Shown piece by piece: positions 12,196 to 55,444 of a stretch of 64,000 nt of DNA. Positions within the stretch are counted from its first letter, which is position 1. Each line of letters starts with the position of its first letter. The notes under the pieces are model-generated. The model saw only the letters and a program-made list of their open reading frames with translations, was not told the origin of the DNA and searched no databases. The position numbers and the translations under genes were made by a program. Where the stretch lies: positions 101,761 through 165,760 of the forward strand of contig CAVTGX010000004.1 of NCBI GenBank assembly GCA_963734405.1, given 5' to 3'. Origin of the DNA: an uncultured Actinomycetes bacterium. GTDB taxonomy: Bacteria; Actinomycetota; Thermoleophilia; Solirubrobacterales; 70-9.

Positions 12196-14790
<2,595 letters not shown>

Positions 14791-14805
14791 AAGAATCCTC
14801 TTCTT

Positions 14806-14822
14806 GGTCGAACCCGGTTGAA
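14806..14822. promoter_or_regulatory. CtsR-operator-like direct heptad repeat in the clpC leader (speculative)
   Basis: GGTCGAA-CCC-GGTTGAA lies 16-32 nt from the clpC start. It resembles the CtsR consensus (A/G)GTCAAA-NAN-(A/G)GTCAAA. No ctsR gene is visible in the window. Confidence 0.2.
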
Positions 14823-14977
14823 CCAGGTTAGTACCGGTAGACGCCCGATCGATATCGGAAGGCGTCCATGTGTGCCTTAACGATACCGGGACCGCTCCCC
14901 CGGCCCACGGCCCCGAGTATGCGCTAACTGCGGGCTTCCACGGGACGAACGGGCCGATCCGGGCACGGAACCGCCGC

Positions 14978-38717: not shown

Positions 38718-39884
38718 CTACACCCCCGCGTGCCCCTCGGCGATCCAGGCGGCGAGCAGCGGATCGATGATCCGCAAGCCCGTGGCGGTCGCCGCGTCCT
38801 CGGCGATCTCGCCACGATCGATCAGCGCCTCGACCGCCCTGCTCACGGCTCCTCCCCGCGAGCCCCCGTGCCGGCGCCCGGCGGCGTAGATGCCCTCGCG
38901 GTCGTCGGCGACTCCGGCGAGCACACGCCGCTGGGAGGTCGGCAGCGCCGACCAGGCGGCCCGCAGCTCGTCGCGAACCTCGCGCATCGCCTGGTCATAG
39001 GCGGCGAGCCAGGTTTCCTCGGTCGCCTCCTCCCCTTCGGGAGTCAGCTCCCAGAGGACGTGGGCGAGCAGCATCGTGCGCTGAGGGTGGCCGCCCGCCG
39101 TGTTGAGCAGCGGCCCGAGCGCGGTGCCGATCCGACGGTCGGTGGTCTCGAAACGGGACGCGAGGTGTTCGGCGACGTCGTCGGGTCGCAGCGGCGGCAG
39201 GTCGACCGGCCCCGCCTGTCCGTAGAAGGCGCGGCGGCGGTCGGAGAAAAGCTCGCGCATCATCCCGACGTGCGAGCCGGCGAATACGTAGCTGGCGGCG
39301 TCGCCGTGGTGCTGGATCTCGGCCCGGATCACGGCGTCGGCGCGCTCCTTGGCGGCAAGGATGTCCTGAAACTCATCGAAGATCACGAGCGTCCGCGTCC
39401 CGTGTTTCGCGTGGAGGCGGGCCGGCAGGGCGAGCCTCTCCACCAGCGGCGGCTCGGCCTGCGGATCGACGCTCGCCTCGACCCTGACCGGAACCGACCC
39501 CCCACCGACCCGGAGGGTGGGACGGAGCAAGCGCCGCGCCCCGGCGAACCAGGTCGCGAGGCGACCCTGAAGCTGATCGACGTAGGCGCGCTCGATCCGC
39601 TGCGCGATGTCGTCGAGCGTGAGGACGCCGAAGAAGTCCACGTAGACCGCCGCCCATCCTTTCTCCGCTCGCGCTTCCTCGGCCACCCGCGAGAGCAGAG
39701 AGGTCTTGCCGTATCGGCGCGGCGCCACAAGGCGGCTGTTGTTGCCGCTGACCGCTCGGCCCAGCAGCAGCGCCGCCTCTCGGTCGCGGTCGAGCAGCTC
39801 GTCGGCGGGGACGGGCTCGCTGTAGCGGAATGGGTTTCTGCTCTCTTTCATAGAGCTAGTTCGCTCGCTAGAATAGAGCATCAT
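38718..39884 (-). CDS. AAA+ ATPase of the Arch_ATPase (PF01637-like) type with C-terminal winged-helix-like tail
   Basis: Walker A APRRYGKTSLL, Walker B LVIFDEFQDI, sensor-like FAGSH. An alternative start (MKESRNPF) is at 39851. Confidence 0.6.
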   Translation of the reverse strand: MMLYSSERTSSMKESRNPFRYSEPVPADELLDRDREAALLLGRAVSGNNSRLVAPRRYGKTSLLSRVAEEARAEKGWAAVYVDFFGVLTLDDIAQRIERAYVDQLQGRLATWFAGARRLLRPTLRVGGGSVPVRVEASVDPQAEPPLVERLALPARLHAKHGTRTLVIFDEFQDILAAKERADAVIRAEIQHHGDAASYVFAGSHVGMMRELFSDRRRAFYGQAGPVDLPPLRPDDVAEHLASRFETTDRRIGTALGPLLNTAGGHPQRTMLLAHVLWELTPEGEEATEETWLAAYDQAMREVRDELRAAWSALPTSQRRVLAGVADDREGIYAAGRRHGGSRGGAVSRAVEALIDRGEIAEDAATATGLRIIDPLLAAWIAEGHAGV

Positions 39885-40240: not shown

Positions 40241-40537
40241 ATGGCTGACCAAGACCCTACGTGCCCGGCTACCGCCGCGCACGTCACTACCAATGCCGAT
40301 CTGGACGCTCGCGACCAGGCGGAGGTACTTCGCGAAGTCCTCGACATCTACCCGGAAACGCTGACGCTCGACGAGCTGGTACGGGAGCTGACCGTCGCCT
40401 CCGCCGAGTTCACCGAGCATGACCGAATCCGGCGAGCGGTCCGCGTCCTGACCGCGGGCGGCCTGCTCCACGGGATCGGCGACCTCATCCTCCCGACGAG
40501 GGCCGCCGTCAACTTCCACGACCTGCCCCGAGCATGA
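40241..40537 (+). CDS. Small (98 aa) hypothetical protein, possibly wHTH; translationally coupled to the next gene
   Basis: ATG start. Its stop overlaps the next start (ATGA at 40534..40537). LTLDELVRELT...IRRAVRVLTAGGLLH is winged-helix-like. Confidence 0.45.
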   Translation: MADQDPTCPATAAHVTTNADLDARDQAEVLREVLDIYPETLTLDELVRELTVASAEFTEHDRIRRAVRVLTAGGLLHGIGDLILPTRAAVNFHDLPRA

Positions 40538-41169
40538 CGGGCGCCAATGGAGGTGCCAATCCCGGCCGTGGGAGGGTGCGGCTGCTCGTCGCCCTCGATC
40601 TGCCAGACGTGGTGCGCCACAAGGTCGAGGTGTGGCAGCAGAAGGCGCTGACCGATCCGGCCCTGCGTCACAATCGCGGGCTGCGCATAGTCCTGATGTT
40701 CCTCGGCCACCGTCCCCAGCGGGAAGTCGTTCGCTACCTGGAGGCGATCCAAGAGCTGTGCGCATCCGCCCCTGCGCCCTTGGTCGAGCTGGGAGATGTC
40801 GTGGCGAAAGGCCCTGCGCCGGAGCTTCCTCGCGTGTTCGCCCTGCCGGTCAAGTCACCGGAGGCCAAAGTCCTCCAGATCGGTCTGCGCTCCGTCTTCA
40901 CCAACCAGGGCCTGTACATCTACGAACCCAGGGAGCGGACCTTCTGGCCGCACCTGACGGTCGCGAGGGTGCGGACCGCGGATCACAAGGCGCGCCGACC
41001 CGAGGCGGTTCACGACCTACCCGATCGCCCGATCCCTGCGAGCCTGCGCGGTCCCTTCGAGGGACGAAGCGTTGGCCTCTATCGGTCCGAAATGCGGCCG
41101 AGCGGAGCGCGCTACTCATTGCTGGGCAAGGCCGGCCTGCCCGGACCTACGTGGTCGAGTCCGACCTAG
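40534..41169 (+). CDS. 2H phosphoesterase (LigT/ThpR-like) with a degenerate first HxT motif
   Basis: RLLVALDLPD N-terminus. The first motif position reads LRIVLMFLG (the canonical form would be HxTLxFLG). The second motif is intact (FWPHLTVARV). C-terminal LYRSEMRPSGARYSLL. Confidence 0.6.
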   Translation: MTGANGGANPGRGRVRLLVALDLPDVVRHKVEVWQQKALTDPALRHNRGLRIVLMFLGHRPQREVVRYLEAIQELCASAPAPLVELGDVVAKGPAPELPRVFALPVKSPEAKVLQIGLRSVFTNQGLYIYEPRERTFWPHLTVARVRTADHKARRPEAVHDLPDRPIPASLRGPFEGRSVGLYRSEMRPSGARYSLLGKAGLPGPTWSSPT

Positions 41170-41478
41170 AGGCTCTAGCCGAGCCGCGAGCGTCGCGGCA
41201 TCGATTCGAAAAGGTCACCGCCATGCAAACGCTGCGACGGCCCGCGGCGGCCGGGGCGCAAGAACAGGTAGGACCGCCTGCCGTAGGCGTCACCCCCGGC
41301 TGGTTTATCTCAGTCAGGAAGAATGGTGCACTTGCTCGACCTACATGTAGGAAGTTGAGTTCGAGATCGAAACCCTAGTACTCCTTAGCGGGTCCAAGTA
41401 GCCCGGAGACTTCCATTGATCCTTGAGGACAAGACAGACATCCGCCTCGTTGGTGCCGAACTCCCACTTACTAAGGAG

Positions 41479-41892
41479 TTAACGCCAAACCGAGAACTTC
41501 TTAGTTAGTGGATCGAGGCGACTGGCTTCACCAAAGGTGGCCAGAGCGAGAAACTCGATCTCCTCGGCCGCAGTCTGTTTGGTTTGCTCCTGCTGTGCCT
41601 CCGAGCCTCCGCTCAACATCGTGTCGAGATACGCGGTACAAGGAAGGCCCTCTGTTTCAAGTGCGCTCTTGAGGTTCTTCATTTGTCCGCTGCCACCACG
41701 GAGAACGACTACAGACCAATCGCTTATGGATGGGTATTCGGTGCCATCCGCATCGATATAGGTGACTAGACTTAGATCACTAGAAGGTTGGTAGCTACCA
41801 CCAAGACCGAAGGCCACATGTCCGATCCCGGAAAGCATCTCCGACAACTCCCTCCGCTTGTTCAAGACGATAACGAACTTATGCGGCGTCAT
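41479..41892 (-). CDS. DUF2000-family protein (Pth2-like fold family, as I recall)
   Basis: KFVIVLNKRRELSEMLSGIGHVAFGLG..YIDADGTEYPSIS..VVVLRG..MKNLKSALE..LALATFGEASRLDPLTKKFSVWR matches my memory of the DUF2000 pattern. It overlaps the upstream gene by 14 nt. Confidence 0.55.
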   Translation of the reverse strand: MTPHKFVIVLNKRRELSEMLSGIGHVAFGLGGSYQPSSDLSLVTYIDADGTEYPSISDWSVVVLRGGSGQMKNLKSALETEGLPCTAYLDTMLSGGSEAQQEQTKQTAAEEIEFLALATFGEASRLDPLTKKFSVWR

Positions 41893-43510
41893 CTGTATCC
41901 TCCTGGTCCTTGTTGATTGACGTATTGTCTACGGGAGCATCCCGGCTATTGGCAGTTAGCAGCCTCCTGCTCAGGAGAAACCCCTGCGAAAAATCTGGTC
42001 CGTCTGGGTGAACCTGGAATCGATACACCTGGCGCTGGCCAAGGCGATAGTCGAAAAACGATCCTCCACGCACCGCCTGCACCCCACGGTCAGGGAAGAA
42101 CGTGCTAGTCCAGTGCCAGACGTTGCCAATGCCCTGGACCACGCCAAACGGGCTAGCGCCCTCCCTCTTTTCTGACACTGCGATTGGCGCCACATCTCTA
42201 TCCCAGCCATCAGTACTGATGTTCGCGAGGCGCGAGTCAGGTGGCTGATTGCCCCACGGATACTCTCTCCCGTCAACTCCCCGCACTGCCTTCTCCCACA
42301 TCTCCACGGTCGGCAACTCGGCACCGAGCCAAGCGCAGAATGCAGCCGCGCCGAAATAGTTGACGTAGGTAACAGGGTGATCCGCATATGTGTCGGCGAC
42401 ACTGAACTTGCCGCCAATTTCATTGATCCGGCACTCGTCCACCGGGGAAGAGCCATCGAGGTCGATCCAGGTCACACCGCCTTCACGGCGGTTGCCAAAA
42501 CAGTTGAGGAATACGCAGAATTGTGAATTCGTGATCGAGTAGCGGGTGATCCAATACTCGCCCAGCTCGAGCTCCTCGCCCTTGGGGCCAGGGCCAGATA
42601 CGAAAGGCCCTGCCGGAACTTGCACCAGCTCAAGGACCTCATCGCCCTCGGGCAATGGCAGCGACGCGACCAATAGCTCCCCGTCTCTGCGAGTACGCAG
42701 AGCGTGCCCATCGGCGCTGAGTTGGGCATCGCTGGAGAGGATCGCTTTGTAAGAGTTTCGCTCTGCGCGCAGCGCATCTACCTGCTGCTTCTGGCGGACG
42801 CTAGTCGCCTGCTGGACGCGAATTTCTGATTGCAGGCGCTTGGCTTCGTCGTCGAGGTTCTCGAAGAGCTCGATATTGTCAACGCTGGCCGGGGGGTCGA
42901 GAACGGCTTTCAGACGAAGATCACTGCTGAACAGGATCATCTTTTGGATCGCGTTACGAAGCGTCGCCTCCCAGTTGAGAGCAGACGTGTCGTAGGGAAT
43001 TAGGTTGATGTGGCGCAGATCCGAAGGGACATCCTCGATCTGCTGGGTGATCATGACCACCTTCTTGTTGACTGCGTGACAGAGGCCCAGCTCATACAGC
43101 ACGTTGGCGTTCGCACCAGTCATCTCGGCAACCACCAAATCAGCTCCCAATACCTGTTCCCAGATGGTCTGAATGAATGCTTGAGGGCTGAAGAGCTCGT
43201 CAGAGCGCACTGCATGGAAGCCAGCGTCAAAAACCGCTGGCTTGATGACTCCCTCGTAGTATTCGTTAAAGGGATCGATGAAGGGCATGATCACGAAGAC
43301 ATGACCGTTGCCGTTCTCCCCGTCCTCTGCGGGTTTGGAGCCTCTCGAAGTTGAAAGGGACTTACTCACCTCGTAGCGCTCCCGCCGAAGACTCGCCGGC
43401 AATTCGCGCTCACTCGGCCACTGGTCAACTACTGCGTCGATCTCTGCCAACCGTCGTTCGAGTTGCTCGGTGTCCAGACTGGGTTCCATCCCGTCCATAG
43501 CGCTCGTCAA
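41879..43510 (-). CDS. Fusion protein: nucleoside 2-deoxyribosyltransferase-like (NDT/TIR-like Rossmannoid) domain + coiled coil + FGE-sulfatase (SUMF1-like) domain
   Basis: NDT-like: HVFVIMPF..ADLVVAEMTGANANVLYELGLCHAVNKKVVMI. Coiled coil: LDDEAKRLQSEIRVQQATSVRQKQQVDALRAERN. FGE-sulfatase: HPVTYVNYFGAAAFCAWLG..EYPWGN..GNVWHWT..VRGGSFFD. Confidence 0.65.
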   Translation of the reverse strand: MTSAMDGMEPSLDTEQLERRLAEIDAVVDQWPSERELPASLRRERYEVSKSLSTSRGSKPAEDGENGNGHVFVIMPFIDPFNEYYEGVIKPAVFDAGFHAVRSDELFSPQAFIQTIWEQVLGADLVVAEMTGANANVLYELGLCHAVNKKVVMITQQIEDVPSDLRHINLIPYDTSALNWEATLRNAIQKMILFSSDLRLKAVLDPPASVDNIELFENLDDEAKRLQSEIRVQQATSVRQKQQVDALRAERNSYKAILSSDAQLSADGHALRTRRDGELLVASLPLPEGDEVLELVQVPAGPFVSGPGPKGEELELGEYWITRYSITNSQFCVFLNCFGNRREGGVTWIDLDGSSPVDECRINEIGGKFSVADTYADHPVTYVNYFGAAAFCAWLGAELPTVEMWEKAVRGVDGREYPWGNQPPDSRLANISTDGWDRDVAPIAVSEKREGASPFGVVQGIGNVWHWTSTFFPDRGVQAVRGGSFFDYRLGQRQVYRFQVHPDGPDFSQGFLLSRRLLTANSRDAPVDNTSINKDQEDTDDAA

Positions 43511-43531
43511 TGTGCTCGAATCGAAGGCTGA

Positions 43532-44329
43532 CTACGCGAACTGATAGAGAGGATGATTTGTATCGCGAACGCCGAGGAAACAGGCGGCCGTGACCCGTTC
43601 GCCACTCTTAACGCCGCGGACTCCATGAAGACGAGCCGCGTCAAAGGCGACTAGATCACCTTGACGGGGCGTTATTACGAAGGTTGGATCCCCCAATTTA
43701 TTACGATCGACACCGTAGTCAGTGCGCTTCATACGTTCATACTCCGACTCGCTCTCGATCTTGCCCCAGAACTCGATATCACCTCCCAATCCGGGCGGCG
43801 GGGTTGCTAGGTAAACATTGATGGCAATGCGACGTTGGAGCGAAAGGGAGGCGAGAATCGGCAGTTCGCGCTGGTCGATGTGAGGATTGGCATGTCCCCC
43901 CTCTACCCAACGCCTCACGATCCCCGACAGCATTGGCCTTGCCCCCTGTCGGGCGATCGTTGCCCCTGCCGGCCATGCCTCGTCGGCAAGCAATCGCACG
44001 GTATCGATCGGCGAGAGATATGGGCGAAAAAGCTGGGCGCGGATCGACTCACGCGTCTGCGGTGCCGTTAGAAAGTATTCCTCCTCATGCGTCGGCGACT
44101 GCTCCGCCTCTCCCATTGACGTACCAAGGCTCTGCAAGTCACTCGTCAATGAGTATTCGGAAGCATCACAGGCCTGACGTATCGCCGGCAGCACCGCCTC
44201 GCAGACATCGACTCCATAGAAGCCTCGGTGCCAGACGATGTCTAGCTTTCCTTGCGCCAAGGAAGCAACTGCTGGCGAGTCGAATACCTCGCCTACGTTC
44301 AGTTGGGCGCTCCCCGCTAGAGAGACCAA
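43532..44329 (-). CDS. 2OG-Fe(II) oxygenase superfamily protein
   Basis: HxD (NPHIDQ), distal His (ARLHGV) and RxT (GERVTAAC) at the spacing expected for the jelly-roll facial triad plus the 2OG-binding Arg. TTG start. Confidence 0.6.
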   Translation of the reverse strand: MVSLAGSAQLNVGEVFDSPAVASLAQGKLDIVWHRGFYGVDVCEAVLPAIRQACDASEYSLTSDLQSLGTSMGEAEQSPTHEEEYFLTAPQTRESIRAQLFRPYLSPIDTVRLLADEAWPAGATIARQGARPMLSGIVRRWVEGGHANPHIDQRELPILASLSLQRRIAINVYLATPPPGLGGDIEFWGKIESESEYERMKRTDYGVDRNKLGDPTFVITPRQGDLVAFDAARLHGVRGVKSGERVTAACFLGVRDTNHPLYQFA

Positions 44330-44569
44330 GGCCTCTCCGTTGAATTGGCAACGCTGTATCCCTCCATAAGGAGCGGCAGACTCTCAAACGATGATCTTGC
44401 TGTCAATCACTTAATCGCAATCTTCACATCCTGAACATAAATAGTTTGGTTTGTGGATAGCGTCCCTAGGGGCTTTTATGAAGGCGGGTACCCTCGCCGG
44501 GGTTCTAGACCCTTTCTCGCTCTTCTCGTTGCATCAGGTATACGCGCCGTACTAGGGTCACGCATAGTC

Positions 44570-46036
44570 ATGCCTACCCAGCCTCCGACAGACGAGTTCA
44601 TCGATGATCGGTCTATCGAAGAGAAGGCCGACGATCGCTTCCGCCACGAGGACGTGGTAGCCGAGCTAGCCCACCTTGTGGACAGCCGTGCGGCTCAGAC
44701 GAACATTGCTCTCTTCGCGCCGTGGGGAAGCGGCAAGACTGGCATCTCGAAGCTCCTCCGTTCGCGACTTGAAGATAAGAAAAAGGGACACCGCTATGTC
44801 TACTTCGACGCCTTCAAGCATCGCGATACGTCGCTGCGACGAAGCTTCTTGCGAACCGTTGCCGTTGGGCTCGACGAGGATCCTACCGAGATAGATGCAC
44901 TCTCCAAGGAGGAAATAACCCAGGAACTCGGCACCTCTGATTGGAAGCGCGTTGCAAAGTTCGTCGCCGGAGCCTTGGGAGTCGGCATTGTGCTTATGGC
45001 CCTCCTGAGTCTTGCCCTCGCATGGATTCGCCCGGAGGCCCCAAAGGAAAACTTTGGCGAGAGCTTTGTCCTGATGTTCACCAAGCTGAGCGGCGTCGCG
45101 ACCCTCGTCGCGGCCTTGATCGGCGTGGTTGTCAGCGGCCTGCTCGGAGGAGTAACGGCAACCCGCAAACAGATGCCGCTCTCTGAGGATGATGAGTTCG
45201 AGGACGCTTTCGGCAAGCTGGCAAAGAAGGCCGATCGACTCGTGATCTTCATTGACGAGCTCGACCGCTGCGCGGCCGACGAGGTGGTCGAGACCCTGGA
45301 GACGATGCGGGTTTTTCTCGATGTACCTAACTGCATCTTTATCGTCGCCGCTGATCGACAGGCGCTTGAGGCTGCGTTGCGACGAAAGGCTCGACAGGAG
45401 ACGCCCGCAGACGAAGTTCACCCTTACTTCAGTAGCGCAGGGGCCTACGTCGACAAGATCTTTCAGTTCCAGATCGCGCTGCCCCCTTTGCGCTGGACCG
45501 ATACGGGCGAGTTCGCCGAGAACCTCGTGAAGAATCGCGGGGGGCTCTGGAAAGAGCTACGAGAACGTGACGAAATGCAGGACGTTCTGACGGCACTGAT
45601 TCCCACCCATGTCACCAGTCCCCGTCGCGTCAAGGTGTTGCTCAACTCATATGTGATTGCCCATCGACTTGCTGAACGGCGCGCCAATGCAGAGGAAATG
45701 GCGGACCTATCAGGGCGCGCAGCGGCGCTCGCTCAGCTCGTCTGTCTAGGGGCTGAGTTTCCTCTCTTTGCAGATGAGCTTGAGCGTTTTCCCGAACTGC
45801 CCGCGGCTGCCTTGGCAGTCGCTGAGAGCAGCTACGAGAACAGCCTGCGCACCGAGGCCCCCGAGGTTTGGGAGCGTGCAGTCGACTTCATCGACCGGGG
45901 ACGACCCCTAGTGCCACTCCTCTATGGCAGGCGGGCAAACGGGGAGCAAGTCGAGAACAAGGTGGAATCGCCAGATGACGCGAACGACCCAAAGGACGGC
46001 GATGGTGACAGCACGCCTGAGGAGCCGCAGCAATGA
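44570..46036 (+). CDS. KAP-family P-loop NTPase with two transmembrane helices inserted in the NTPase domain
   Basis: Walker A FAPWGSGKTG. TM segments VAKFVAGALGVGIVLMALLSLALAWI and VATLVAALIGVVVSGLLGGV. Walker B LVIFIDELDRC..FIVAADRQ. The ORF-track start is 44453 (GTG); ATG at 44570 fits the family N-terminus better. Confidence 0.75.
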   Translation: MPTQPPTDEFIDDRSIEEKADDRFRHEDVVAELAHLVDSRAAQTNIALFAPWGSGKTGISKLLRSRLEDKKKGHRYVYFDAFKHRDTSLRRSFLRTVAVGLDEDPTEIDALSKEEITQELGTSDWKRVAKFVAGALGVGIVLMALLSLALAWIRPEAPKENFGESFVLMFTKLSGVATLVAALIGVVVSGLLGGVTATRKQMPLSEDDEFEDAFGKLAKKADRLVIFIDELDRCAADEVVETLETMRVFLDVPNCIFIVAADRQALEAALRRKARQETPADEVHPYFSSAGAYVDKIFQFQIALPPLRWTDTGEFAENLVKNRGGLWKELRERDEMQDVLTALIPTHVTSPRRVKVLLNSYVIAHRLAERRANAEEMADLSGRAAALAQLVCLGAEFPLFADELERFPELPAAALAVAESSYENSLRTEAPEVWERAVDFIDRGRPLVPLLYGRRANGEQVENKVESPDDANDPKDGDGDSTPEEPQQ

Positions 46037-48255
46037 CCGGCGGAGAGACCGGGATCGACGCGATTCTCGCCCGGCAGCGACAGGACCTGATTGCCTATCT
46101 GACCCGGGTCAGGAATCTCCCGGCGCCCACGCGGGACCTTGTCTTTATGCACAGCGAAGCTGGAGTCGCAAGTGGACTGGAGGCTGCCTCATCAGATCGA
46201 TTGGCAGCGATGGCGCGCAATGGTCAGACCGAGGGCCTTGGGGATCTACTTGACAAACTGCCAGCCTCCCAGCAGGAGGCTGCAGTCGCGACCCTTGCGC
46301 GCTGGTCTGGGATTTTTGCTCTCGCGCCAGAGCGCAAAAACGCGGTCACCGTCCTTCTCGCCGCTACCGCGGCGATCGGTGAGCTCAGCGCCGAGACGAC
46401 CGCGTTGGTTACTGGTGCCGTCCTATCATCCCCTGGCGACTTGCCAGCGGGAGCTCTCGGAGACATGGTCCGCCTCGCCCGACGTTGTCGACCGTCCCAG
46501 CGCAGCCAGCTAGTCGCGAAATTGAAAGAGCGAAACGATGTCGTAGAAGACTCGTCGGCCCGAGCCGCGCTTGTCGCGAGCTTTCCGGAGTTCAACAACG
46601 CGGACGATCTCTACGGCGTAGCGATGGCAATGGCGATCGGCCAGATTGACGGGGATGCCACGAAAGAACTCCTGACACTTCCTGAATCCGAGCAGGCAAA
46701 GTTGCTCAAACTTGCTGATCCCAGAGTGCAGGGTTGGATCAACGCAGCGCAGCAAAAAGCCAACAACCCGCCAGAGGGAGAGGAGCCTGAGAGCACCGCA
46801 AGCGTCAACGGATGGCTGTTGCCGGCACTCCAGGTTCTAGAAGATTCCACAATCGCTGTCACGAGATTCGCGATCTGGCTACTACGAGCGGAAAATCCCC
46901 AGTCCGACGCGGAGGTCCAGAATCGACTAAACCTGCTCGCGCCGATCAGCGAGCCTGAGCTACTGCGGCTGATGCTCCAGCGAATGCAGACCGTTCCTCG
47001 CGGAGACCGTGAATCCTGGCTTGAGGCAATCGACCGGTCCGCAATTAACACCGATGCTGTTGCAACACTCGATTCCGTCGCGAGGCAGGTGTGGAGCGAA
47101 CGGATAGCGCCCGAAGCCGACCCGGACAGCTTCGGCGGCATGTTGGATCGTCTCGCCGCCCTCTCAAAAGAACTCCCCGTCGAGGAGAGGAAGTTTCCGC
47201 AGGTCGACGCGGCGATTGGGGAGGCGACTCAAAACCCCATGCAGAGCGACGAGGCGGCGCAAGAGTTTCTCCGAATCTCAACCGCTGCAAATGAATTTGT
47301 AGATCATGAGTTGGCGGACACGACCCAGTGTGCCGATCGTTTTATCACCAGCGCAGCCTCAGCGATGGGTGTACTGCCAATAGGCGAGCTTGAACAGCTA
47401 CCGCAGTTGCGCTCCGCAGCTAGCCACCTACGACACGATTGGCTCTCTGACGCTTCCCCTGCGGCGCTTCAGACGCTACGCGAGGCAGCAACTCAGGAAC
47501 CCGAGGCACGACTCGACGCGACGAAGGCAGAGGCACTTCTCAGCGCCGTTGGTCGACTACGGGAGCAAGGCCAGGAAATTTCGTCTCCCCTTGACCCCAA
47601 CGCCGTCGGAGACCTTGGACGCGACTACGGTGACGGAGCCGACGGAGCGCTCATAGCCTGGCTGGCTTACTTTGACCAGGACGGACTCTGGTCTGTACTC
47701 GCGCCAATGTGGGGGACGCAGATATCACCCGCAGTAAGGCAGGGCTTTGAGACAGCCGCGAAACAGCTTCCGGAGCCCCAACATCAGAAGCTTGCAGAAG
47801 CCGCCTTCGATCAGAGCCTGAGTACCAGCGCACCACCCGCAGCGAACTGGGAGGCAATTGCACTCCCTGAGCTGAGCGGTAGCTGGGTGGTCAGGGCACT
47901 CGCCAAACGAAAGCCCGGCGAAGATCTCGAGCGTTGGCGGATTTTGCTGGAGATCGCGCGCCAGAGGGTCCTGAGCGGAAAAGCGAAGACGCTGGCCGCC
48001 AATGAACTCCTGAAACCGCTTGCGGCCCTTGATTCCGATTCCGCATTTGAACTTGCGCTCGGCAATTTGGAGCTCGCCAGTAAGGACAGTGGTGAAGAGA
48101 TGCTCGCCGGACTAGAACTGACGGGCGACCAAGCGCGCCTCGTCGAGGCCAAGGTCAAGCAGCTTGGCTGGAAGAAAAGTGCAATCTCAAGGCTCCTCGG
48201 CAGTCTCGTAGGCAGCGACGGAGAGCCTGAAAAAGACGAGTCCGAAGGAGCCTGA
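46033..48255 (+). CDS. 740-aa all-alpha (Leu/Ala-rich, repeat-like) hypothetical protein, translationally coupled to the KAP NTPase
   Basis: Its ATG overlaps the KAP TGA (caATGAcc). Uninterrupted ORF in the lower-GC region. No catalytic motif recognised. Confidence 0.6.
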   Translation: MTGGETGIDAILARQRQDLIAYLTRVRNLPAPTRDLVFMHSEAGVASGLEAASSDRLAAMARNGQTEGLGDLLDKLPASQQEAAVATLARWSGIFALAPERKNAVTVLLAATAAIGELSAETTALVTGAVLSSPGDLPAGALGDMVRLARRCRPSQRSQLVAKLKERNDVVEDSSARAALVASFPEFNNADDLYGVAMAMAIGQIDGDATKELLTLPESEQAKLLKLADPRVQGWINAAQQKANNPPEGEEPESTASVNGWLLPALQVLEDSTIAVTRFAIWLLRAENPQSDAEVQNRLNLLAPISEPELLRLMLQRMQTVPRGDRESWLEAIDRSAINTDAVATLDSVARQVWSERIAPEADPDSFGGMLDRLAALSKELPVEERKFPQVDAAIGEATQNPMQSDEAAQEFLRISTAANEFVDHELADTTQCADRFITSAASAMGVLPIGELEQLPQLRSAASHLRHDWLSDASPAALQTLREAATQEPEARLDATKAEALLSAVGRLREQGQEISSPLDPNAVGDLGRDYGDGADGALIAWLAYFDQDGLWSVLAPMWGTQISPAVRQGFETAAKQLPEPQHQKLAEAAFDQSLSTSAPPAANWEAIALPELSGSWVVRALAKRKPGEDLERWRILLEIARQRVLSGKAKTLAANELLKPLAALDSDSAFELALGNLELASKDSGEEMLAGLELTGDQARLVEAKVKQLGWKKSAISRLLGSLVGSDGEPEKDESEGA

Positions 48256-48326
48256 CCGTTTCCCTGCCGACTATATGGCGAACGAAGCTGCGCTCGCTCA
48301 AGCCGGGCGTCAACCACCAGGAGCAG

Positions 48327-49178
48327 GTGGACCACAACTTTGACGACGAGATAGTGGGCATCGGCTGGGGCATCGAGGCGCTGCCCGACGGCGCCTCCTT
48401 GACGGATGTTTTGACCGCGATCGGCTCCCAACCTGAATGGACCAAAGATGCGGTCCACACGGTTCGCCGCTTCGGCGAGGATGCCGAGATCGGCGACTAT
48501 ATTTGGACGCGGGACCTCCACGGCCGTTTCCGGCTTGGGCGCATCGCCGGGGGCTACCGCTACGAGAACACTGAGCTTGCCAAGCGCACCGACACCCATC
48601 AGGTACGCGACTGTGACTGGGCGAATCAGCCGCTCGGTGACCTTGAGGTGCCGGGAGCGGTCATCCGCGGATTCGCTGGCACCTCGACGAGCTTCAGCCG
48701 CATGTGGGACGAGGGCGCGCGCATTTACACGGCATGGCTTTGGGAGAAGCTGCACGGGCGCGACCCTGCTCCACTCAGCTTCACTTACCTGGAGGTTCTC
48801 CGGCAGCTTGAGCCCTACGATCTTGAGGATCTCGTCTACACCTGGATGCAGGTTGCCGAGGACTACCTCGCGCTACCGAAGGCGAGGCGAACCGATACCC
48901 CCGCCTACGAGTGGACGATGCTGAACCGCAAGACCTTTGCGCCGGCGATCGTCCAGGTGAAGTCGGGCAATCAGGCCGTCAACCTTGAGGCGCTCTCGGA
49001 CGCCGCACCCAACGCCGAAACCGTCCTGTTTGCCTGCTCGGCGAGCGGCCAGTTCACTGGGCGTCCGCCCAGAGAGATCCGCCGCATCTCGCCTACTGAA
49101 CTCGTCGACTTCGTGCACGAACACAAGCGCCTGCTCCCACCGCGTGTTCGCACCTGGTTCGAACTCGCGAAAAGCTAG
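48327..49178 (+). CDS. Mrr-like PD-(D/E)xK nuclease-fold protein with an uncharacterised N-terminal domain
   Basis: C-terminal half: LEDLVYTWMQVAEDYLALP..DTPAYEWTML..PAIVQVKSG (D..E..QxK arrangement). The N-terminal ..IVGIGWG.. domain appears to continue upstream (WRTKLRSLKPGVNHQEQ) of any canonical start codon. Confidence 0.5.
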   Translation: MDHNFDDEIVGIGWGIEALPDGASLTDVLTAIGSQPEWTKDAVHTVRRFGEDAEIGDYIWTRDLHGRFRLGRIAGGYRYENTELAKRTDTHQVRDCDWANQPLGDLEVPGAVIRGFAGTSTSFSRMWDEGARIYTAWLWEKLHGRDPAPLSFTYLEVLRQLEPYDLEDLVYTWMQVAEDYLALPKARRTDTPAYEWTMLNRKTFAPAIVQVKSGNQAVNLEALSDAAPNAETVLFACSASGQFTGRPPREIRRISPTELVDFVHEHKRLLPPRVRTWFELAKS

Positions 49179-49191
49179 GTAGCCCTTCAGG

Positions 49192-49818
49192 TTATATCTC
49201 GGCGCCTGCAGGAATCCAGAGAGCCTGCGTTGCTCGCGCCGTCGCCTCGATTGCCGCCGTTGATGCCAGCAAGTCCTCGGGCTTCATATCCTCGGCCCGG
49301 ACGATCTGCTTTTCCACTTCCTTCACCCGCTCTGGCGACACCGCCCCCGTCGCGGCATAGGCATGCTCGTGCCAACCCTCGGGCACGCACCCCGTAGGAA
49401 CTGCGGTCACGAACGCTCCAAACGCACAGGTGATCTCAGGTCCGATCCCGAGCACTTGCCAGCCCTTCTCGTCCTCGGAAACGTCGAGCCGGTTGTAGCT
49501 CAAGTGGACCATCTCCTTGCCGACGCGGCCCTTGACCCGCGAGAGCCGCACGGACATCGCAGGCGCCTTCCACTCGCCGACATAGTCGGAGGCGAGCGCG
49601 TCGGTGCCCTTCATCGGCTTGTCCCGCCAGAGGAAGTCGATCAGATTCCGTGAGTGGACCCCGAAGCTCTCCAGCAAGGCGTTCTCCACAATCGGGTCGT
49701 CCTCGTGGTGCCGGTTCATGAGCTTGACCGTCACCTCGTAGAGCATCCCGGCCTCGTAGAGCAGATGCTTCTCTGCGAAGCGACGCAAACGGTCCACTGG
49801 CGGGCGCTGCCGCGCCAC
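49192..49818 (-). CDS. Hypothetical protein (208 aa), convergent with the KAP operon
   Basis: Clean ORF with ATG start. No family recognised. Confidence 0.45.
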   Translation of the reverse strand: MARQRPPVDRLRRFAEKHLLYEAGMLYEVTVKLMNRHHEDDPIVENALLESFGVHSRNLIDFLWRDKPMKGTDALASDYVGEWKAPAMSVRLSRVKGRVGKEMVHLSYNRLDVSEDEKGWQVLGIGPEITCAFGAFVTAVPTGCVPEGWHEHAYAATGAVSPERVKEVEKQIVRAEDMKPEDLLASTAAIEATARATQALWIPAGAEI

Positions 49819-49941
49819 TACGGATCCCTGCCGTGCCGACCGGCACCGTCCCGGGGCTCGCCGCCGGCGCGAGGTTCGTTCTCCATTGTCATCACCTCAG
49901 CGTAGGGCCGCGGGCGGCTGCGAAATCTAAATTTTTGCCGG

Positions 49942-50180
49942 AAAACGCCGCCTCAAACGACGGATAGGTATGAGGCGAAAAATCGAAGACGATTCGCGAA
50001 TTGGGGGGTCCACTTTTGCTGCTCGGCCCCCTGTTGTTGTAGATGCGGAAATTCGCGACGCAAAACCACGCCTCAAACGACAAAGAGGCATGAAGCGAGC
50101 AGACCGACAGCGGCTGCGGCAAATGTCGGATTCGTCACACAAGACGGTCCACTTTCGCTGCTTCTTGCTCCGTATAGGTG
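49942..50180. repeat. Two tandem, diverged ~120-140-bp units, each with an internal hairpin (iteron/oriT-like)
   Basis: AAAACgcCGCCTCAAACGAC..AGGtATGAgGCGA (from 49942) recurs as AAAACcaCGCCTCAAACGAC..AGGcATGAaGCGA (from 50062). GGTCCACTTTtGCTGCT at 50007 recurs as GGTCCACTTTCGCTGCT at 50146. GCCTCA..TGAGGC forms a stem in unit 1. Confidence 0.6.
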
Positions 50181-50365
50181 TGAGTCCCTTTTACGGAATC
50201 CAAGCCGGGCATCGCAACGGGTCGCCTGGCGGTTCAACTGCCGGGCCGACCGTCAGGTCGCCCCTCGGTTCGCCGGGATGCAGTCGCGAAAGCGCCAGAT
50301 TCGGCAGCACAGCGCGGATTGCGGAACCTGCGCTTTGCCGACATACCTACGTCACCCAGAGGTCG

Positions 50366-53046
50366 GTGCATGAAGGGCGACGGATCGCTCCGATCCGCGG
50401 CCGATGCTGGCGATCTTCGCCGGTGCTCGTGGCCGCCGCCCTCTGGAGCGCCGTGTCGAGCATCCGCGTCGATCAGCTCCTCGCCTCCGCGGCGTCGCTC
50501 GCGCCCTTCGCTCTCGGCGCCCTCGCTATCGCCTCCGCGCTGGCTACACAGCGCTTCCTCGCCACGCGCCGCACGCTTGCGACGCGCGCCGCTGCGTCGC
50601 GGTCGTGCCGGCCGACGAGTTCGACGCGAAGCCCGAGGCCGTCCTGCGCTTCGCCGCCGAGCTGGCCGCGGGCCGATCGCAGCGTGCGCGGCTGGCTCGA
50701 TCGCCGCGCCAGCGCGCTGCGGGTGCAGCTGACCAACGACGCGCGAGGGCCGTCTCGTCTACCTGCTCGAAGTGCCGGACCGCTCGCGCGAGCTGCTGCG
50801 CACGGCGCTGCGCGGCTACGAGGGAGTCGAGCTGCGCGATGCCGCAGAGGTGCTGCGCCGAGCACGAGCAGGCCCGGCGAGACGTCAGTGCTGCGCACCG
50901 AGCTGATCCTGGCCCGCGCCGAGCGTCGAGCCGCTGGCCCGGCTCGACCTCGAGCCCGATCCGCTTGCAGCCCTTCGCCGCGGCGATGGCCTCGCTTCGC
51001 ACCGCAAGACGGCGAGCGCGTCAACGCGTCTGCGTCGACCTGCTGCCGGCAGCGGCGGCGCGCGCCGCTCGCGGCTGCGGCGCCGCCTGAAGCGGCAGGC
51101 GCGGCGGCTACACGGCGAACGGCGCAGCTTGATGGAGGTGCTCGAACGGCGAGCGCCGCCGCGGCACCGCCGACCCCGCCGAGCTGTTCGAGCGCCGCCT
51201 GGTCGGCGCAGGCTCTCGACGCGAAGCTGCGCGATTCCGGCCCGCTCTTCGAGGCGCAGATCCTGCTCCGCTGCGCAGGCCGACCGAGCGCCGCTGCGCA
51301 AAGGTCGCGATGCAGCAGCCTGCTCGCCGCCTTCGAGCCGTTCGCCGCGCAGCAACTGGCTGCGCGCCGTCCGGACTCGGGATCGGCGACGTCGTCTTCT
51401 TCGGCTCCGACTTCCCGACTGCGACGGCGGGGCTTCGACCGCCGCCTCTCCACCGGCCTCTTCCGTCCGGCGCGGCGTAGCGATCCTCACCGCTCGCGAG
51501 GTGGCCGGCTTCCTGAAGCCGCCGACCGTCCACTGCCTCGGCGAGAACGTGTTGCGCTCGGGCACGCTGCTGCCGGCGCCGCCCGAAGCTGCCGACCTTC
51601 GAGAAGGCCAAGGACGACCTGATCCCGCTCGGCCGGGTCGGCGGGGAGGCGCGGCGAGCGGGTCGTCGGGGTCCGCACCGCCGACACCTTCTTCTCCTAC
51701 GTCGCCGGACGCACCCGCTACGGCAAGACCGAGACGGCGATCGCCCAGTTCGTCCACCTGGTCCGCTCGGGCCACGGCGGCCTCTTCCTCGATCCCCACG
51801 GCGACGCCCTGGAGCGGATCAGGCCCTATCTGGACGACGCCGACATCGCCCGGCGGGTGGTCGAGATCGACCTCGGCCCGGCGCGGCTGGAAGCCTGCCC
51901 GGCTGGAACCTCTTCGAGCTGAGCGGCGGCGAGAGCGACGGCAGCCGAGGCGCGGGTCGAGGCGATCGTCGACGCCTTCGCCTCGACCCTGCAATGGGGC
52001 GAGCAGAGCACCCGCGCGATCAACCTGACCACGCAGGCGGCCGCGGCGCTGGCGAGGATCGCCGCCGGTCGCTGCCGCCCGAGCTGGCGCCGACGATCTT
52101 CCAGCTCCCCACCCTGCTCTCCGACGAGCGCTGGCGCGCGCGCCGTCCTGCCCTTCCTGCCGAAGGCCTCGCAGCGCTTCTGGATCGACCGCTTCCCGCT
52201 GCTCGCCGCAAGAGGCGATCACGCCGGTCACCAACCTGGTCGACCGCCTGCGGCACTCGACCCCGATCAGCGCCGCTGCTCGGCCAGAGCCAGAGCACCT
52301 ACCGGGTGCGCGAGGCGATGGACAGCGGGCGAGATCGTCCTCGCCTGCCCAGGCTCGGGCGGCACCCGCGAGCGGCTGCTCGCCAACCTGCTCCTCTTCG
52401 ACCTGCTGCACGCGGCGCGCAGCGAGGTCCGAGCTCGCGCCCGCTGCGCGCAAGCCCTTCTGGGTCTTCCTCGACGAGGTCCAGAGCTACGACGGCGCCG
52501 CCTCGGGCAACCTCGCCGCGCTGCTGGAGCAGAGCGCCAAGTTCGGGCTGCGCGCGGTGCGTGCTGAACCAGAACCCCGAGCGGCTGAACCCGCAGACGT
52601 TGAACGCGCTCGACGACCAACCGCTCGCACCTGCTCGCCACCGCGCTCAACTCCCACGCCGCCGCCCTGCTCACCAAGGAGTGGGGCGGGCCAGCCCGAC
52701 CCGGCGGCGCTGACCAAGCTCGGCGCGCTACCGCTTCGTCGCCCAGGTCACCCACCACGGCGAGCTGAGCAAGCCCTTCGCGCTCGGCGGGGATCAGGGT
52801 CGAGGACGTTCTCGGAGCGCCGGCAGCTCGCGACCGGTGCGCCGGCAGGCGTAGCCGCGACCCGGATGCGAGGTCGGCGAGGTGATCGCCCACCTCGAGA
52901 CGCTCGACGACCGCATCCTCGCCGCGCTCGACGGAGCTGACGGCGCAAGCCGGACGCCGCCGAACGAGTCGACGCCGGCAGGCGAAGGATGGCGCGGCCC
53001 GCTCGGTTCCGCTTTGGGCGCCAACGGGGAGGGCGGGCCACCGTGA
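50366..53046 (+). pseudogene. Conjugative coupling-protein-like P-loop ATPase (TraD/TraG/VirD4-type), with many frame breaks
   Basis: Pieced from three plus frames: an N-terminal hydrophobic segment (VLVAAALWSAVSS..LAPFALGALAIASALA), Walker A FFSYVAGRTRYGKTE, LFLDPHGDALERI, Walker B-like FWVFLDEVQSY, LNQNPERLNPQTLNAL. At least 6 frame switches are needed. The ends are approximate. Confidence 0.45.
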
Positions 53047-53070
53047 GCGATCCGCCACCCTCCGATCGGC

Positions 53071-53929
53071 GTGCCGGAGACGGGGATCGAGGTCATCGCC
53101 TCGCTCGCCCAGCACCGCGTCCTCTCCGCCGCGCAGGTCCGGGCCATCCACCTCCCCGATCGGCAGCTACGCGCTGGGCGCAGAAGGTGCTCGTCCCGAC
53201 TCGGCGAGGCCGGCCTCGCCGGCTACGTCGAGACTCGCCCACGGCTCGCCGCGCCGGCTCTGGCACGTCACCGAGCGCGGCGCTCGACTGGCGCGCGAGG
53301 CCGGCGTGCTTGGACGGCGAGCCGCGGCTGATCGGCGCCGAGGACGCAGCCGGGCCGCTTCAGGCGCACACGCTCGCGGTCAACGACGCCGCGATCTGCT
53401 TCCTCGCGCCGCGCGCGAGCGCGGCGACGAGTTCGGCCCGTTCGCCTGGCGCCACGAGGTCTCCCACCCGCTCACCTACGGCCGCGGTCGGCGGCGGCGC
53501 GCGCTGATCGCCGACGCCGTCTTCACCTATCTGCGGCTCGACCGCGACGGGGTCGCGATCGAGCAGCGCTTCTTCGAGCTCGACCGCGCCACCCTCTCGG
53601 TCGATCGCCTCGCCGCCGAGCTGGCTCGCTACGCAGAGCTGTACCGGCTGGCCGGCGAGGACGGTGAGCCGCTGTGGCGCCTGCGCTATCCGGTCTTCCC
53701 GCCGGTCCATTGCGTGCTCGCCGGGGGAAGCCGAGCCGTGCTGGAGCGCCGCCGCTCGACCGCCATCGCCCTGATGCGAAGCGATCCCCAGCTCGCCCGC
53801 GCGCCGGAGGTGGCGATCTCCTTCTGCCTATTTGAGGATCTGCAAGCCAAAGGCCCGTTCGCCCCGATCTTCCGCGACTTCCGCAACCCCGACCAGCCGA
53901 TCGACTGGCTTGGAGCCAACGCCGCTTGA
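53071..53929 (+). CDS. Replication-relaxation family protein (Replic_Relax-like); 2-3 frame breaks
   Basis: IEVIASLAQHRVLSAAQVRAIH..LGEAGLAGYVE..LQAHTLAVNDAAICF..ALIADAVFTYL..FFELDRATLSVDRLAAELARY..VFPPVHCVL. Confidence 0.55.
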
Positions 53930-54162
53930 GACCACGGGCGAATGGAGCTAAACGTGTCGGGCAGAGTCAGCGGCGGCCCAGCCATGACCGGCGCGACGCT
54001 ACACCGGTCGGCGACCTGAAGGCCAGCATGTCGATCGAGCAGGCGCAACCCGGATCTGCGCTGGACGATCAGCTTCGACGCGAGCAAGCCAAGGCGATCT
54101 TCGACCTGCTTCTGGCGCATCGTCGGAAAAAGGTGACAGAAAAGGTCAGAGATTAAATTGCT

Positions 54163-54774
54163 ATGATCCTAGTTATGTCTGACGTGGATCACGACGGACT
54201 CTATTACGTGGCCGAGGCGCAGGCCGGGTACTTCACCGCTCCGCAGGCGATCGCGGCGCGCATGGACCACAGCACCCTGGCCCACCATGCCCGGCCCGGG
54301 GGGCGATATCTGCGAATCCGGCGAGGGCTCTACAGGCTGCGGCACTTCCCGCCCAGCCCCTACGAGCACGTAATGGCGGCGTGGCTTCCGCTGCGCGATG
54401 CGGGGGCGGTTGTCTCGCACGAGAGCGCCCTCGAACTGCACGATCTCTCCGACGTGAACCCCGACGCCGTTCACCTCTCGCTGCCCCGCTCGGAGCGAGG
54501 GCAGCGCGCCCGCCCCGGCGTTCAACTGCACACGTTGAACGATCCGCCGAAAAAGTCAGAGGTCTGCGAGATCGCCGGCCTGCCGGTGACGCAACCGGAG
54601 CGCACGATCGTCGATGCGCTCGCAACGGGCACCCAGCCCGAGCAAATCCAGATGGCGATCCGCCAGGCCCTGGAGCGAGGGATCGCCACGCCGCGGCGAC
54701 TGCGCACGGCGGCGGCGCGCAGCTCAGCCCGGGTCGGCAAGTTCATCGAGCGCAGCTTGGAGGAAGCGAAATGA
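54163..54774 (+). CDS. AbiEi-type (type IV TA) antitoxin-like transcriptional regulator, no adjacent AbiEii
   Basis: GYFTAPQA..YLRIRRGLYRL..VVSHESALELHDLSDVNPDAVHLSLP matches the AbiEi_4/AbiEi N-terminal domain pattern. Confidence 0.6.
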   Translation: MILVMSDVDHDGLYYVAEAQAGYFTAPQAIAARMDHSTLAHHARPGGRYLRIRRGLYRLRHFPPSPYEHVMAAWLPLRDAGAVVSHESALELHDLSDVNPDAVHLSLPRSERGQRARPGVQLHTLNDPPKKSEVCEIAGLPVTQPERTIVDALATGTQPEQIQMAIRQALERGIATPRRLRTAAARSSARVGKFIERSLEEAK

Positions 54775-54794
54775 GCTTTCCGGCTTTCGCTACT

Positions 54795-55190
54795 TCAAAG
54801 CTCGGCCGGCGATACGACGAAGCCGAGCCGGTCTGCGCCTCGACGCAGGGCGCCGTCGAGCGTCACCAGCCGACAACCGAGAATCTGGGCCAGCGCGACG
54901 TACTCGGCGTCGTAGGTCCTGCCCCAGCCGAACTGCTCGGCGATCTTCCAGGCCGTCCGTCCAAGCTCGGGCTCATCGACGCGACGAACCGGGCAGCCTT
55001 CGAGGCGCTCGTGCTGGACCTTGGCCTGCTCGGCACTGACCTTTCCGTTCAGCAGCCCGAGGTGCATGGTCGAGCGGGCCTCCGACCACATCAGCGCCGG
55101 GGCGACGAGATCATTGTCGCCCAAAGACTTGAAGCCCTCGGCGCTGCCGACCGAGGCAATCGTGACCGTGGCATCGACGACGAGGGTCAA
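54795..55190 (-). CDS. vapC: PIN-domain toxin (VapC-like)
   Basis: LVVDATV (first acidic residue), YDAEYVALA, LVTLDGAL. There is a 4-nt overlap with the upstream small gene. Confidence 0.7.
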   Translation of the reverse strand: MTLVVDATVTIASVGSAEGFKSLGDNDLVAPALMWSEARSTMHLGLLNGKVSAEQAKVQHERLEGCPVRRVDEPELGRTAWKIAEQFGWGRTYDAEYVALAQILGCRLVTLDGALRRGADRLGFVVSPAEL

Positions 55191-55390
55191 CGCCGACCGC
55201 TACGAGCCTCGTGCAGCAGCGCCACCCAGTTCGGCTGCGGCGTGCCGTCCTCGAAGGTCTTCCACGCCTCCGGCAGCCCGACGATGTCGTCCTCGGCTTC
55301 AGGCTCATCGACCACGATGATCCTCGCCCTCGGAACCTGGGGCTCGCTCAGCTTGTCGACCTCACGGTGCAGCTGGTCACGCGTTGCCAT
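55187..55390 (-). CDS. Small antitoxin partner of the PIN toxin
   Basis: MATRDQLHREVDKLSEPQVPRARIIVVD... is about 68 aa and overlaps the vapC start. The ORF-track start at 55435 is probably over-extended. Confidence 0.5.
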   Translation of the reverse strand: MATRDQLHREVDKLSEPQVPRARIIVVDEPEAEDDIVGLPEAWKTFEDGTPQPNWVALLHEARSGRR

Positions 55391-55444
55391 GCCCACCAGT
55401 TTACCGGCCATTCCAGCCGTTCCCACCGACTCCACGAGGAGGCC

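Follow-up and report, generated by a model that had tools for sequence, protein, structure and literature searches.

We propose that three consecutive plus-strand genes, located at positions 44570-49178 of a 64,000-nucleotide (nt) stretch of DNA from an uncultured actinobacterium of the order Solirubrobacterales (contig CAVTGX010000004.1; this whole stretch is called the window below), constitute two units rather than one system. The first (unit A) is a pair of genes coding for a KAP-family P-loop nucleoside triphosphatase (NTPase) and an α-helical solenoid partner, which together represent the split form of a single large protein. The second (unit B) is a self-contained gene for a DUF8426/PDC-S02 protein, a candidate nuclease that comparative evidence suggests was joined to the end of the pair in one recent lineage. 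An earlier interpretation of the same DNA, made from its letters and open reading frames (the sequence-only reading), had taken all three genes as one undescribed defense system comprising an NTPase switch, a scaffold or sensor, and an Mrr-like nuclease effector. Our alternative, in which the two units are coexpressed in the lineage of the window yet are not one obligate system and the pair probably acts against phages, appears moderately probable when taken as a whole.

Gene 1 (44570-46036, plus strand) codes for a protein of 488 amino acids (aa) that matches the Pfam KAP_NTPase profile (PF07693) over almost its entire length, at positions 7-292 of 293 (E = 8.9e-37; 127.4 bits against a cut-off of 20). 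It displays a Walker A motif, APWGSGKT (aa 50-57; nt 44717-44740), and a Walker B motif, LVIFIDELDR (aa 224-233; nt 45239-45268), with two hydrophobic segments between them (aa 127-156 and 165-198; nt 44948-45163; Kyte-Doolittle peaks of 2.47 and 2.26) that, judging from hydropathy, are predicted to form a two-helix membrane hairpin, and it ends in an acidic, low-complexity tail. The KAP architecture recognized by the sequence-only reading is thereby upheld. Its choice of GTG 44453 as the start codon is not: the likely start is ATG 44570, because homologs of 480-490 aa align from their first residues (residues 1-8) and the DNA similarity of the window to two related loci, L005 and L010, begins only at about 44570-44600. 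(Related loci are numbered here with the prefix L.) No match was returned when solved structures were searched by sequence with gene 1 or with the profiles built from genes 2 and 3.

Gene 2 (46033-48255, plus strand) codes for a 740-aa protein that retrieved no match in Pfam, PADLOC (even at E ≤ 10), or NCBIfam, in keeping with its earlier description as a helical open reading frame (ORF) with no catalytic motif. Its AlphaFold2 (AF2) model is all α-helical and forms an uninterrupted α-solenoid (predicted local distance difference test [pLDDT] score of 86.8), and Foldseek searches with it recovered only generic HEAT/ARM proteins, such as importin-β, condensin Ycg1, and the PP2A-A subunit, at low template modeling (TM) scores. 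We accordingly describe it as a predicted HEAT/ARM-like solenoid. Conservation is best in its N-terminal ~130 residues, and many partial matches in distant relatives span just that region. Gene 2 is the faster-diverging of the two genes among loci: in L007 and L008, for example, its identity is 55%, as against 75-79% for gene 1. Close homologs number only 14 among 5.8 billion proteins, and a search of plasmid and phage collections with gene 2 yielded no match.

The relationship between the two proteins became apparent from a profile search with gene 2 against 1.84 billion cluster representatives, which retrieved 115 proteins, mostly of 1,195-1,280 aa, matching over approximately residues 470-1230. 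A Pfam scan found KAP_NTPase at about residues 40-380 in all eight of these that were tested, and the same hydrophobic segments as in gene 1 lie ahead of their Walker B motifs. When the products of genes 1 and 2 are placed end to end, they align with these fused relatives as one collinear segment of 1,234-1,277 columns at 30-38% identity. Because the joined genes align collinearly with single proteins of ~1,230 aa, sequence comparison identifies the pair as the split form of a protein that combines a KAP NTPase with a ~740-aa solenoid. The split falls within the acidic, low-complexity linker of the fused relatives, where the stop codon of gene 1 overlaps the start codon of gene 2 in the ATGA at 46033-46036, plus strand. 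This overlap, already noticed in the sequence-only reading, recurs with the same length of 4 nt in all seven related loci for which genes were called. In each of the 13 loci found (L001-L008, L010, L038-L040), gene 2 is immediately preceded by the KAP gene; the genes of L002, L003, and L039 are 100% identical, and L040 is truncated within its KAP gene. The pair is counted in 10 distinct lineages. The gene fusions make a physical and functional partnership of the two proteins very likely. The sequence-only reading had made its proposal depend on both the 740-aa gene and the nuclease-like gene being conserved along with KAP homologs elsewhere; this holds strictly for the former, which is even fused to the NTPase in distant relatives, and fails for the latter.

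The fused relatives are encoded by solitary genes. As a family, the KAP-solenoid proteins comprise ~115 clusters at 50% identity, the few placeable members of which all belong to Actinomycetota; the family is uncatalogued, and its two-gene version is rare. Organism-named relatives of genes 1-3 come mostly from Solirubrobacterales or other Thermoleophilia. Other split points were also encountered. In L042 (8001-11472), proteins of 667 and 507 aa are encoded with a 56-nt overlap, an arrangement confirmed by the gene 2 profile that could be a frameshift or a pseudogene, and in L041 (8001-11703; Streptomyces violaceoruber), proteins of 848 and 379 aa are separated by a 16-nt gap, the second of them having no match to the gene 2 profile.

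The point at which the pair is split also coincides with a discontinuity in its history. Between the window and L005, the KAP genes are 81-91% identical at the nucleotide level, a figure that rises to 91-100% at about 46000-46100 for genes 2 and 3, and the synonymous divergence (dS) is 0.72 for gene 1 as against 0.07 for gene 2 and 0.04 for gene 3. Together, these values mark an apparent recombination breakpoint at the split, at about 46000-46100. The boundary between the NTPase and solenoid genes may be a joint at which sensor arms, along with any attached nuclease, are reassorted with NTPase cores, an idea that we hold to be improbable, although it is consistent with the jump in identity between the window and L005 at about 46100.

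Gene 3 (48252-49178, plus strand) would code for 308 aa if translation starts at CTG 48252. Its product matches the PADLOC model PDLC04816 (PDC-S02) at profile positions 2-294 of 299 (E = 4.4e-55) and belongs to a family with at least 144 homologs, typically of ~313 aa, that bear a precomputed PF28530 (DUF8426) annotation. The earlier impression that the locus matches no named system therefore stands for the 740-aa protein, which no model covers, and falls for gene 3, which is already modeled as PDC-S02. The AF2 model of gene 3 (pLDDT of 88.6) consists of a YTH/PUA-like N-terminal domain and a C-terminal domain with the order αβββαβ (helix 195-209, strands 212-214, 229-232, and 238-244, helix 252-258, and strand 265-270). 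Tryptophans at positions 46, 70, 92, and 130 are invariant in the N-terminal domain. In the family alignment, E199, D200, E227, Q242, and K244 are invariant as well, and D222 is present in at least 90% of the sequences (these residues are numbered from 48231). Foldseek comparisons of the N-terminal domain recovered YTH domains with E values of 4e-3 to 0.03, probabilities of 0.96-0.99, and target-normalized TM-scores of 0.43-0.60. Whole-chain comparisons gave weak matches to MspJI (E = 5e-3), FokI, Bax1, and VcaM4I, with E values of up to 0.3 and probabilities of 0.1-0.5. On the basis of the predicted topology and these weak fold matches, a PD-(D/E)xK-type core is plausible, and gene 3 most likely codes for a candidate modification-reading nuclease of the type IV restriction kind. 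The sequence-only reading had seen an Mrr-like PD-(D/E)xK fold in the C-terminal half, of which only the more general part is retained: gene 3 has no match to Pfam Mrr_cat (PF04471) at E ≤ 0.01, and hhalign gives a probability of 0.1 against the Mrr_cat protein found in L006, so Mrr homology was rejected at the sequence level. Likewise, no homology was found between gene 3 and the genes downstream of the pair in L006 and L001.

The junction between genes 2 and 3 carries most of the information on how the two units came together. The longest canonical ORF of gene 3, which the sequence-only reading had put forward, runs from GTG 48327 to 49178 (283 aa). As that reading had also perceived, the family-conserved segment IWRTKLRSLKPGV lies upstream of this GTG; there is no in-frame ATG, GTG, or TTG between the preceding stop codon (48228-48230) and IWRTKLRSLKPGV. 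The position homologous to the ATG of the family is instead CTG 48252-48254, which overlaps the TGA of gene 2 (48253-48255) in a CTGA at 48252-48255 on the plus strand. Comparison with the stand-alone homologs in L009 and L011 and with L038, which has the pair and no gene 3, clarifies the event. Stand-alone homologs read GCC ATG ACC GAC ATC GTT TCC CCG CCG ACC ATA TGG, the window reads AGC CTG ACC GTT TCC CTG CCG ACT ATA TGG, and in L038, gene 2 ends in ACC TGA followed by unrelated DNA. The comparison places the join exactly at the start codon of gene 3, at a TGA(CC) microhomology, with the ATG converted to CTG. The fused loci, namely, the window, L005, and L010, have this junction in common, a pattern that looks like a single recent fusion event.

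Such an event could have killed gene 3 by removing its start codon, leaving it untranslated and on its way to decay. This idea gains some plausibility from the lack of an in-frame ATG, GTG, or TTG upstream of the conserved N terminus and from the fact that a start at GTG 48327 would delete a conserved strand of the predicted fold. Its predictions are contradicted by the subsequent evolution of the gene. None of the three fused loci has a break in the 308-codon frame, and between the window and L010, 52.5 synonymous and 25.5 nonsynonymous changes have accumulated, for a ratio of nonsynonymous to synonymous substitution rates (dN/dS) of 0.13, the same as that of gene 2. Between the window and L005, the ratio is 0.10, equal to or below that of gene 2. 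All of the substitutions counted here postdate the fusion. Gene 3 is, by this measure, under purifying selection, which points to continued expression, and we consider it very unlikely to be dead or dying. Its translation probably depends on reinitiation at CTG after termination of gene 2. Fusion of the two ORFs by a -1 frameshift was considered and dropped, there being no slippery heptamer ahead of the stop codon in the window (GAAGGAGCCTGA) or in L010 (GAAGAAACCTGA).

Gene 3 can, nevertheless, be separated from the pair by its distribution. Among 29 loci with gene 3 homologs in species-representative genomes, the KAP pair is present only in L010 and absent from the other 28; no neighboring family recurs in more than 3 of the 29, and a search of these loci for a conserved neighbor of gene 3 found none. 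Conversely, gene 3 follows the pair in only 3 of the 10 distinct lineages (the window, L005, and L010), whose gene 2 sequences share at least 90% identity. In the other loci, the position 3' of the pair is taken by an Mrr_cat gene (L006), unrelated small ORFs (L001 and L038), convergent genes (L002, L004, L007, and L040), or a gap of more than 1 kb (L008). The Mrr_cat gene of L006 (5451-6347) has a 298-aa product whose N-terminal domain is Mrr_cat (E = 2.6e-10), lies on the same strand 40 nt 3' of a gene 2 that is 84% identical to that of the window, and is unrelated in sequence to gene 3 of the window. The contig of L001 also carries a stand-alone gene 3 homolog (L029) ~1 Mb from its KAP pair.

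It is against this distribution that a genuine three-component system, in which the KAP NTPase and the solenoid sense infection and activate or license the nuclease as effector, has to be judged. The arrangement in the window invites such a view: the three genes share a strand and overlap by 4 nt at each junction, gene 3 lacks its own start codon and is therefore probably dependent on gene 2 for expression, and this order has been kept under purifying selection in three diverged loci. A different nuclease gene lies 40 nt downstream of the pair in L006, and Tmn, a membrane NTPase compared below, is reported to turn on other defense nucleases through ATP depletion (PMC13001434). Set against these points are the absence of gene 3 from 7 of the 10 lineages with the pair, 6 of which have no nuclease gene downstream at all, the solitary habit of the fused relatives, the 28 of 29 gene 3 homologs that occur apart from the pair and share no conserved neighbor, the predicted reader domain that gene 3 has of its own, its GC content at third codon positions (GC3), which is unlike that of genes 1 and 2, and a junction that looks like one recent fusion event. 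We consequently give a three-component system little credence, and the three-gene defense system of the sequence-only reading is not supported. About equally improbable, in our estimate, is the intermediate possibility that the split KAP-solenoid module has captured a stand-alone reader-nuclease, with the CTGA tying their translation together, so that a three-part system is caught at its origin.

Returning to the two-unit reading, the part played by the pair can be approached through its genomic context. The neighbors of the pair or of its fused relatives include CBASS together with AbiE genes, a TIR gene, a large NACHT-like ATPase, a set of Z1, HATPase, methylase, and Vsr genes, a HEPN gene, and genes of integrative elements (serine recombinase and Replic_Relax). 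In L001, which lies on a 2.46-Mb Solirubrobacterales contig, the pair is situated between a CBASS-type set (SMODS, ThiF, JAB, and SAVED) and an AbiEi/AbiEii pair that adjoins an integrase, these defense gene neighborhoods being at 2715-6956 and 13148-14832. Together with the analogies discussed below, this context suggests that the pair is probably antiphage. By analogy to Tmn and to the KAP fusion proteins of defense tested in 2026, the NTPase would sit in the membrane, the solenoid would dock on it via its conserved N-terminal ~130 residues, and the more variable rest of the solenoid would bind a phage-derived trigger. Binding of the trigger would alter nucleoside triphosphate turnover, and an effect at the level of the membrane would then stop the infection. 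A separate enzymatic effector would be unnecessary, because the fused relatives stand alone. In this scheme, unit B was a later addition, attached where TGA(CC) includes the gene 2 stop codon, and is confined to the recent lineage made up of the window, L005, and L010.

The same context can be read differently, with the pair not immune in nature and instead being a membrane NTPase that serves the mobile element or the cell, in signaling, maintenance, or entry exclusion, and with gene 3 as an unrelated neighbor. KAP NTPases have nondefense roles in other lineages. Integrative elements bearing genes for Replic_Relax and a serine recombinase carry the pair as cargo (in the window, L002, L004, and L010), some relatives are found among housekeeping genes, and no effector domain is recognizable. 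This interpretation accounts poorly for the recurrence of the pair or its fused relatives beside CBASS, AbiE, TIR, HEPN, and Z1/methylase genes and for a combination of features typical of defense genes, namely, a rare and patchy family, low-GC patches, and a solenoid with a higher rate of evolution than the NTPase. Protection against phage has, moreover, been shown for KAP fusion proteins built along the same general lines. We therefore hold a nonimmune role to be unlikely, albeit deserving of consideration.

Several observations weigh against the two-unit, antiphage reading and temper our confidence in it. The defense role of the family is drawn only from context and analogy, and no defense gene was seen nearby in L040, where an acyl-coenzyme A dehydrogenase gene lies downstream, or in L041. 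The KAP protein tested from Enterococcus faecalis does not behave in an abortive infection-like manner, whereas PifA and Tmn act at the membrane, and the analogy to Tmn may not extend to mechanism, the pair not being Tmn by hidden Markov model comparisons. The physical interaction of the products of genes 1 and 2 is deduced from gene fusion. A restriction-type nuclease gene directly 3' of the pair and on the same strand is found in two independent lineages (DUF8426 here and Mrr_cat in L006), which leaves some room for functional cooperation. Finally, with respect to the expression of unit B, initiation at CTG is rare, and no suitably spaced ribosome-binding site precedes CTG 48252; the GAAGGAG found there was ruled out as such a site, as a mere 2 nt separate it from the CTG and L010 does not have it.

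The three genes are embedded in a low-GC island (41000-50000) that also holds an unrelated minus-strand gene set. The GC content is 0.56-0.63 across 41-50 kb as against ~0.72 for the window overall, and the GC3 values are 0.68, 0.64, and 0.79 for genes 1, 2, and 3, respectively, compared with 0.86-0.94 for flanking genes. Genes of a mobile-element backbone (53306-57145, plus strand) lie 4-8 kb downstream, namely, a Replic_Relax fragment (53306-53929), an AbiEi-like gene, and a large serine recombinase gene (55211-57145). The A/T-richer patch near mobile-element genes remarked upon in the sequence-only reading is thus real. Replic_Relax and serine recombinase genes adjoin the pair in L002 and L004 as well, and L010 has the window's downstream 208-aa ORF and part of the backbone region beyond it. 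No tRNA gene that might mark an integration site was found at 30-64 kb of the window, and promoter and terminator scans gave nothing exceeding shuffled expectation. The backbone in the window may be frameshifted or decaying. The Replic_Relax match spans only part of the profile, and a 550-aa ORF in the region 49970-53300 has patchy, partly overlapping matches to L002, L003, L010, and L039 that fall in or just upstream of the 874-aa gene preceding Replic_Relax in L002.

Directly upstream of the KAP gene, within the low-GC patch, is a three-gene minus-strand set (41479-44329) coding for a 2-oxoglutarate (2OG)-Fe(II) oxygenase (43532-44329), a 543-aa protein (41879-43510) with an N terminus weakly resembling TIR or nucleoside 2-deoxyribosyltransferase domains and a C-terminal FGE-sulfatase (C-lectin-fold) domain, and a DUF2000 protein (41479-41892). 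This set was not found beside the pair in other loci and may be a separate effector-plus-sensor conflict module. A 778-aa homolog, P0316, combines KAP_NTPase with FGE-sulfatase, the sensor-type domain that also occurs in this neighboring 543-aa protein. On the other side, a 208-aa ORF (49192-49818, minus strand) is convergent on gene 3, is kept in L010 (87.5%), has a distant relative (49%) in L016, a locus with a stand-alone gene 3 homolog, and is without a match in Pfam or PADLOC. Homology among the convergent ORFs of ~208-214 aa in the window, L002, and L044 was ruled out, as they are mutually unrelated. At the edge of the low-GC patch, a 388-aa protein (38718-39884, minus strand) has weak AAA/ATPase_2-type matches and a 211-aa protein (40534-41169, plus strand) has weak 2H-phosphoesterase (LigT-like) matches, all below curated thresholds.

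Membrane P-loop NTPases with solenoid arms have only recently been recognized as phage sensors or effectors, with the work on both Tmn and the KAP fusion proteins in this respect dating from 2026, and the locus defines an uncatalogued KAP-based family with this NTPase-solenoid design. In the naturally split version, NTPase core and sensor arm are made as two proteins, which is convenient for tests of communication between arm and core and for arm swaps. The junction with gene 3 offers a clean case of two putative defense genes becoming one translation unit, with the start codon of one overwritten by the stop codon of the other, and illustrates how adjacency and overlap alone would have produced a wrong call of a three-gene system. 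Should the capture of the nuclease described above be true, a three-part system would be seen at its origin, with arms and cores that can be reassorted at a gene boundary.

Both units were compared with known systems. PifA of the F plasmid, QatA of QatABCD, and PDC-S20 share the KAP NTPase domain with gene 1 (PADLOC E of ~1e-21 each), and PADLOC models match only the KAP part of the pair and its fused relatives. PifA was ruled out, as gene 1 aligns only at profile positions 4-312 of 720 and gene 2 has no PifA match; QatA was ruled out by an NCBIfam score of 87.4 bits against a cut-off of 600, and the models for QatB, QatC, and QatD found no match among the window ORFs scanned. PDC-S20 (E of ~3e-21) aligns with gene 1 in two partial stretches (e.g., positions 175-336 of 450) and is no better a match than PifA or QatA. 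With respect to gene 3, the type IV, modification-dependent enzymes MspJI and VcaM4I resemble its predicted layout, in which a nuclease domain comes after a PUA-superfamily (YTH-like) reader. Enzymes of this type have no sequence similarity to gene 3, which also differs in that its reader is YTH-like rather than SRA and its proposed motif is D...E...QxK as against the canonical D...(D/E)xK. Gene 3 agrees with PDC-S02 in its full-length model match, family length, conserved residues, and solitary genomic habit; the gene in the lineage of the window differs in having no ATG and in being joined to the stop codon of gene 2. PDC-S02 is itself a single-gene candidate for phage defense, the PDC systems being 145 candidates derived by "guilt-by-embedding" (PADLOC).

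The closest known architecture to the KAP pair is that of Tmn, reportedly the transmembrane P-loop NTPase of Gao et al. 2020. According to a 2026 preprint, the P-loop NTPase of Tmn resides in the membrane and has two transmembrane (TM) helices inserted in it, its HEAT/ARM solenoid arm binds the phage trigger RIIB, and Tmn is assigned to the YobI family, not KAP (PMC13001434). The same elements recur here, with two predicted TM helices between Walker A and Walker B in gene 1 and a long HEAT/ARM-like α-solenoid predicted in gene 2; the fused relatives are, like Tmn, single polypeptides of ~1,200 aa encoded by a gene that stands alone in defense-type contexts. Sequence models nonetheless rule out membership in Tmn. 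The PADLOC Tmn model does not match gene 1 even at E ≤ 10, and Pfam YobI-ATPase (PF20693) gives no match at E ≤ 0.01; one fused relative reaches 20 bits against PF20693, below the cut-off of 27. Gene 1 scores instead as KAP (127 bits), and its solenoid is a separate gene in the window and part of the same polypeptide in the ~1,230-aa relatives. The family assignment in the preprint goes against the citation of Tmn as a KAP example in the sequence-only reading. The decameric membrane complex, trigger-stimulated ATP turnover, Mg2+ export, and plasmolysis are features of Tmn, and the KAP-solenoid family is known here from sequence.

A second parallel is provided by KAP NTPases fused to unknown C-terminal regions, which confer phage protection that depends on Walker B as well as on the C-terminal region (PMC13552941). 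These are proteins of Firmicutes whose C-terminal regions are different and shorter (~320 aa), and they are compared here by design, not homology; the family described above has a 740-aa solenoid instead, split over two genes in the clade of the window. Their general design of a KAP domain, TM helices, and a large C-terminal region with no known domain is also that of the fused relatives and, spread over two genes, of the pair in the window, and both groups are tied to mobile DNA that bears serine recombinases.

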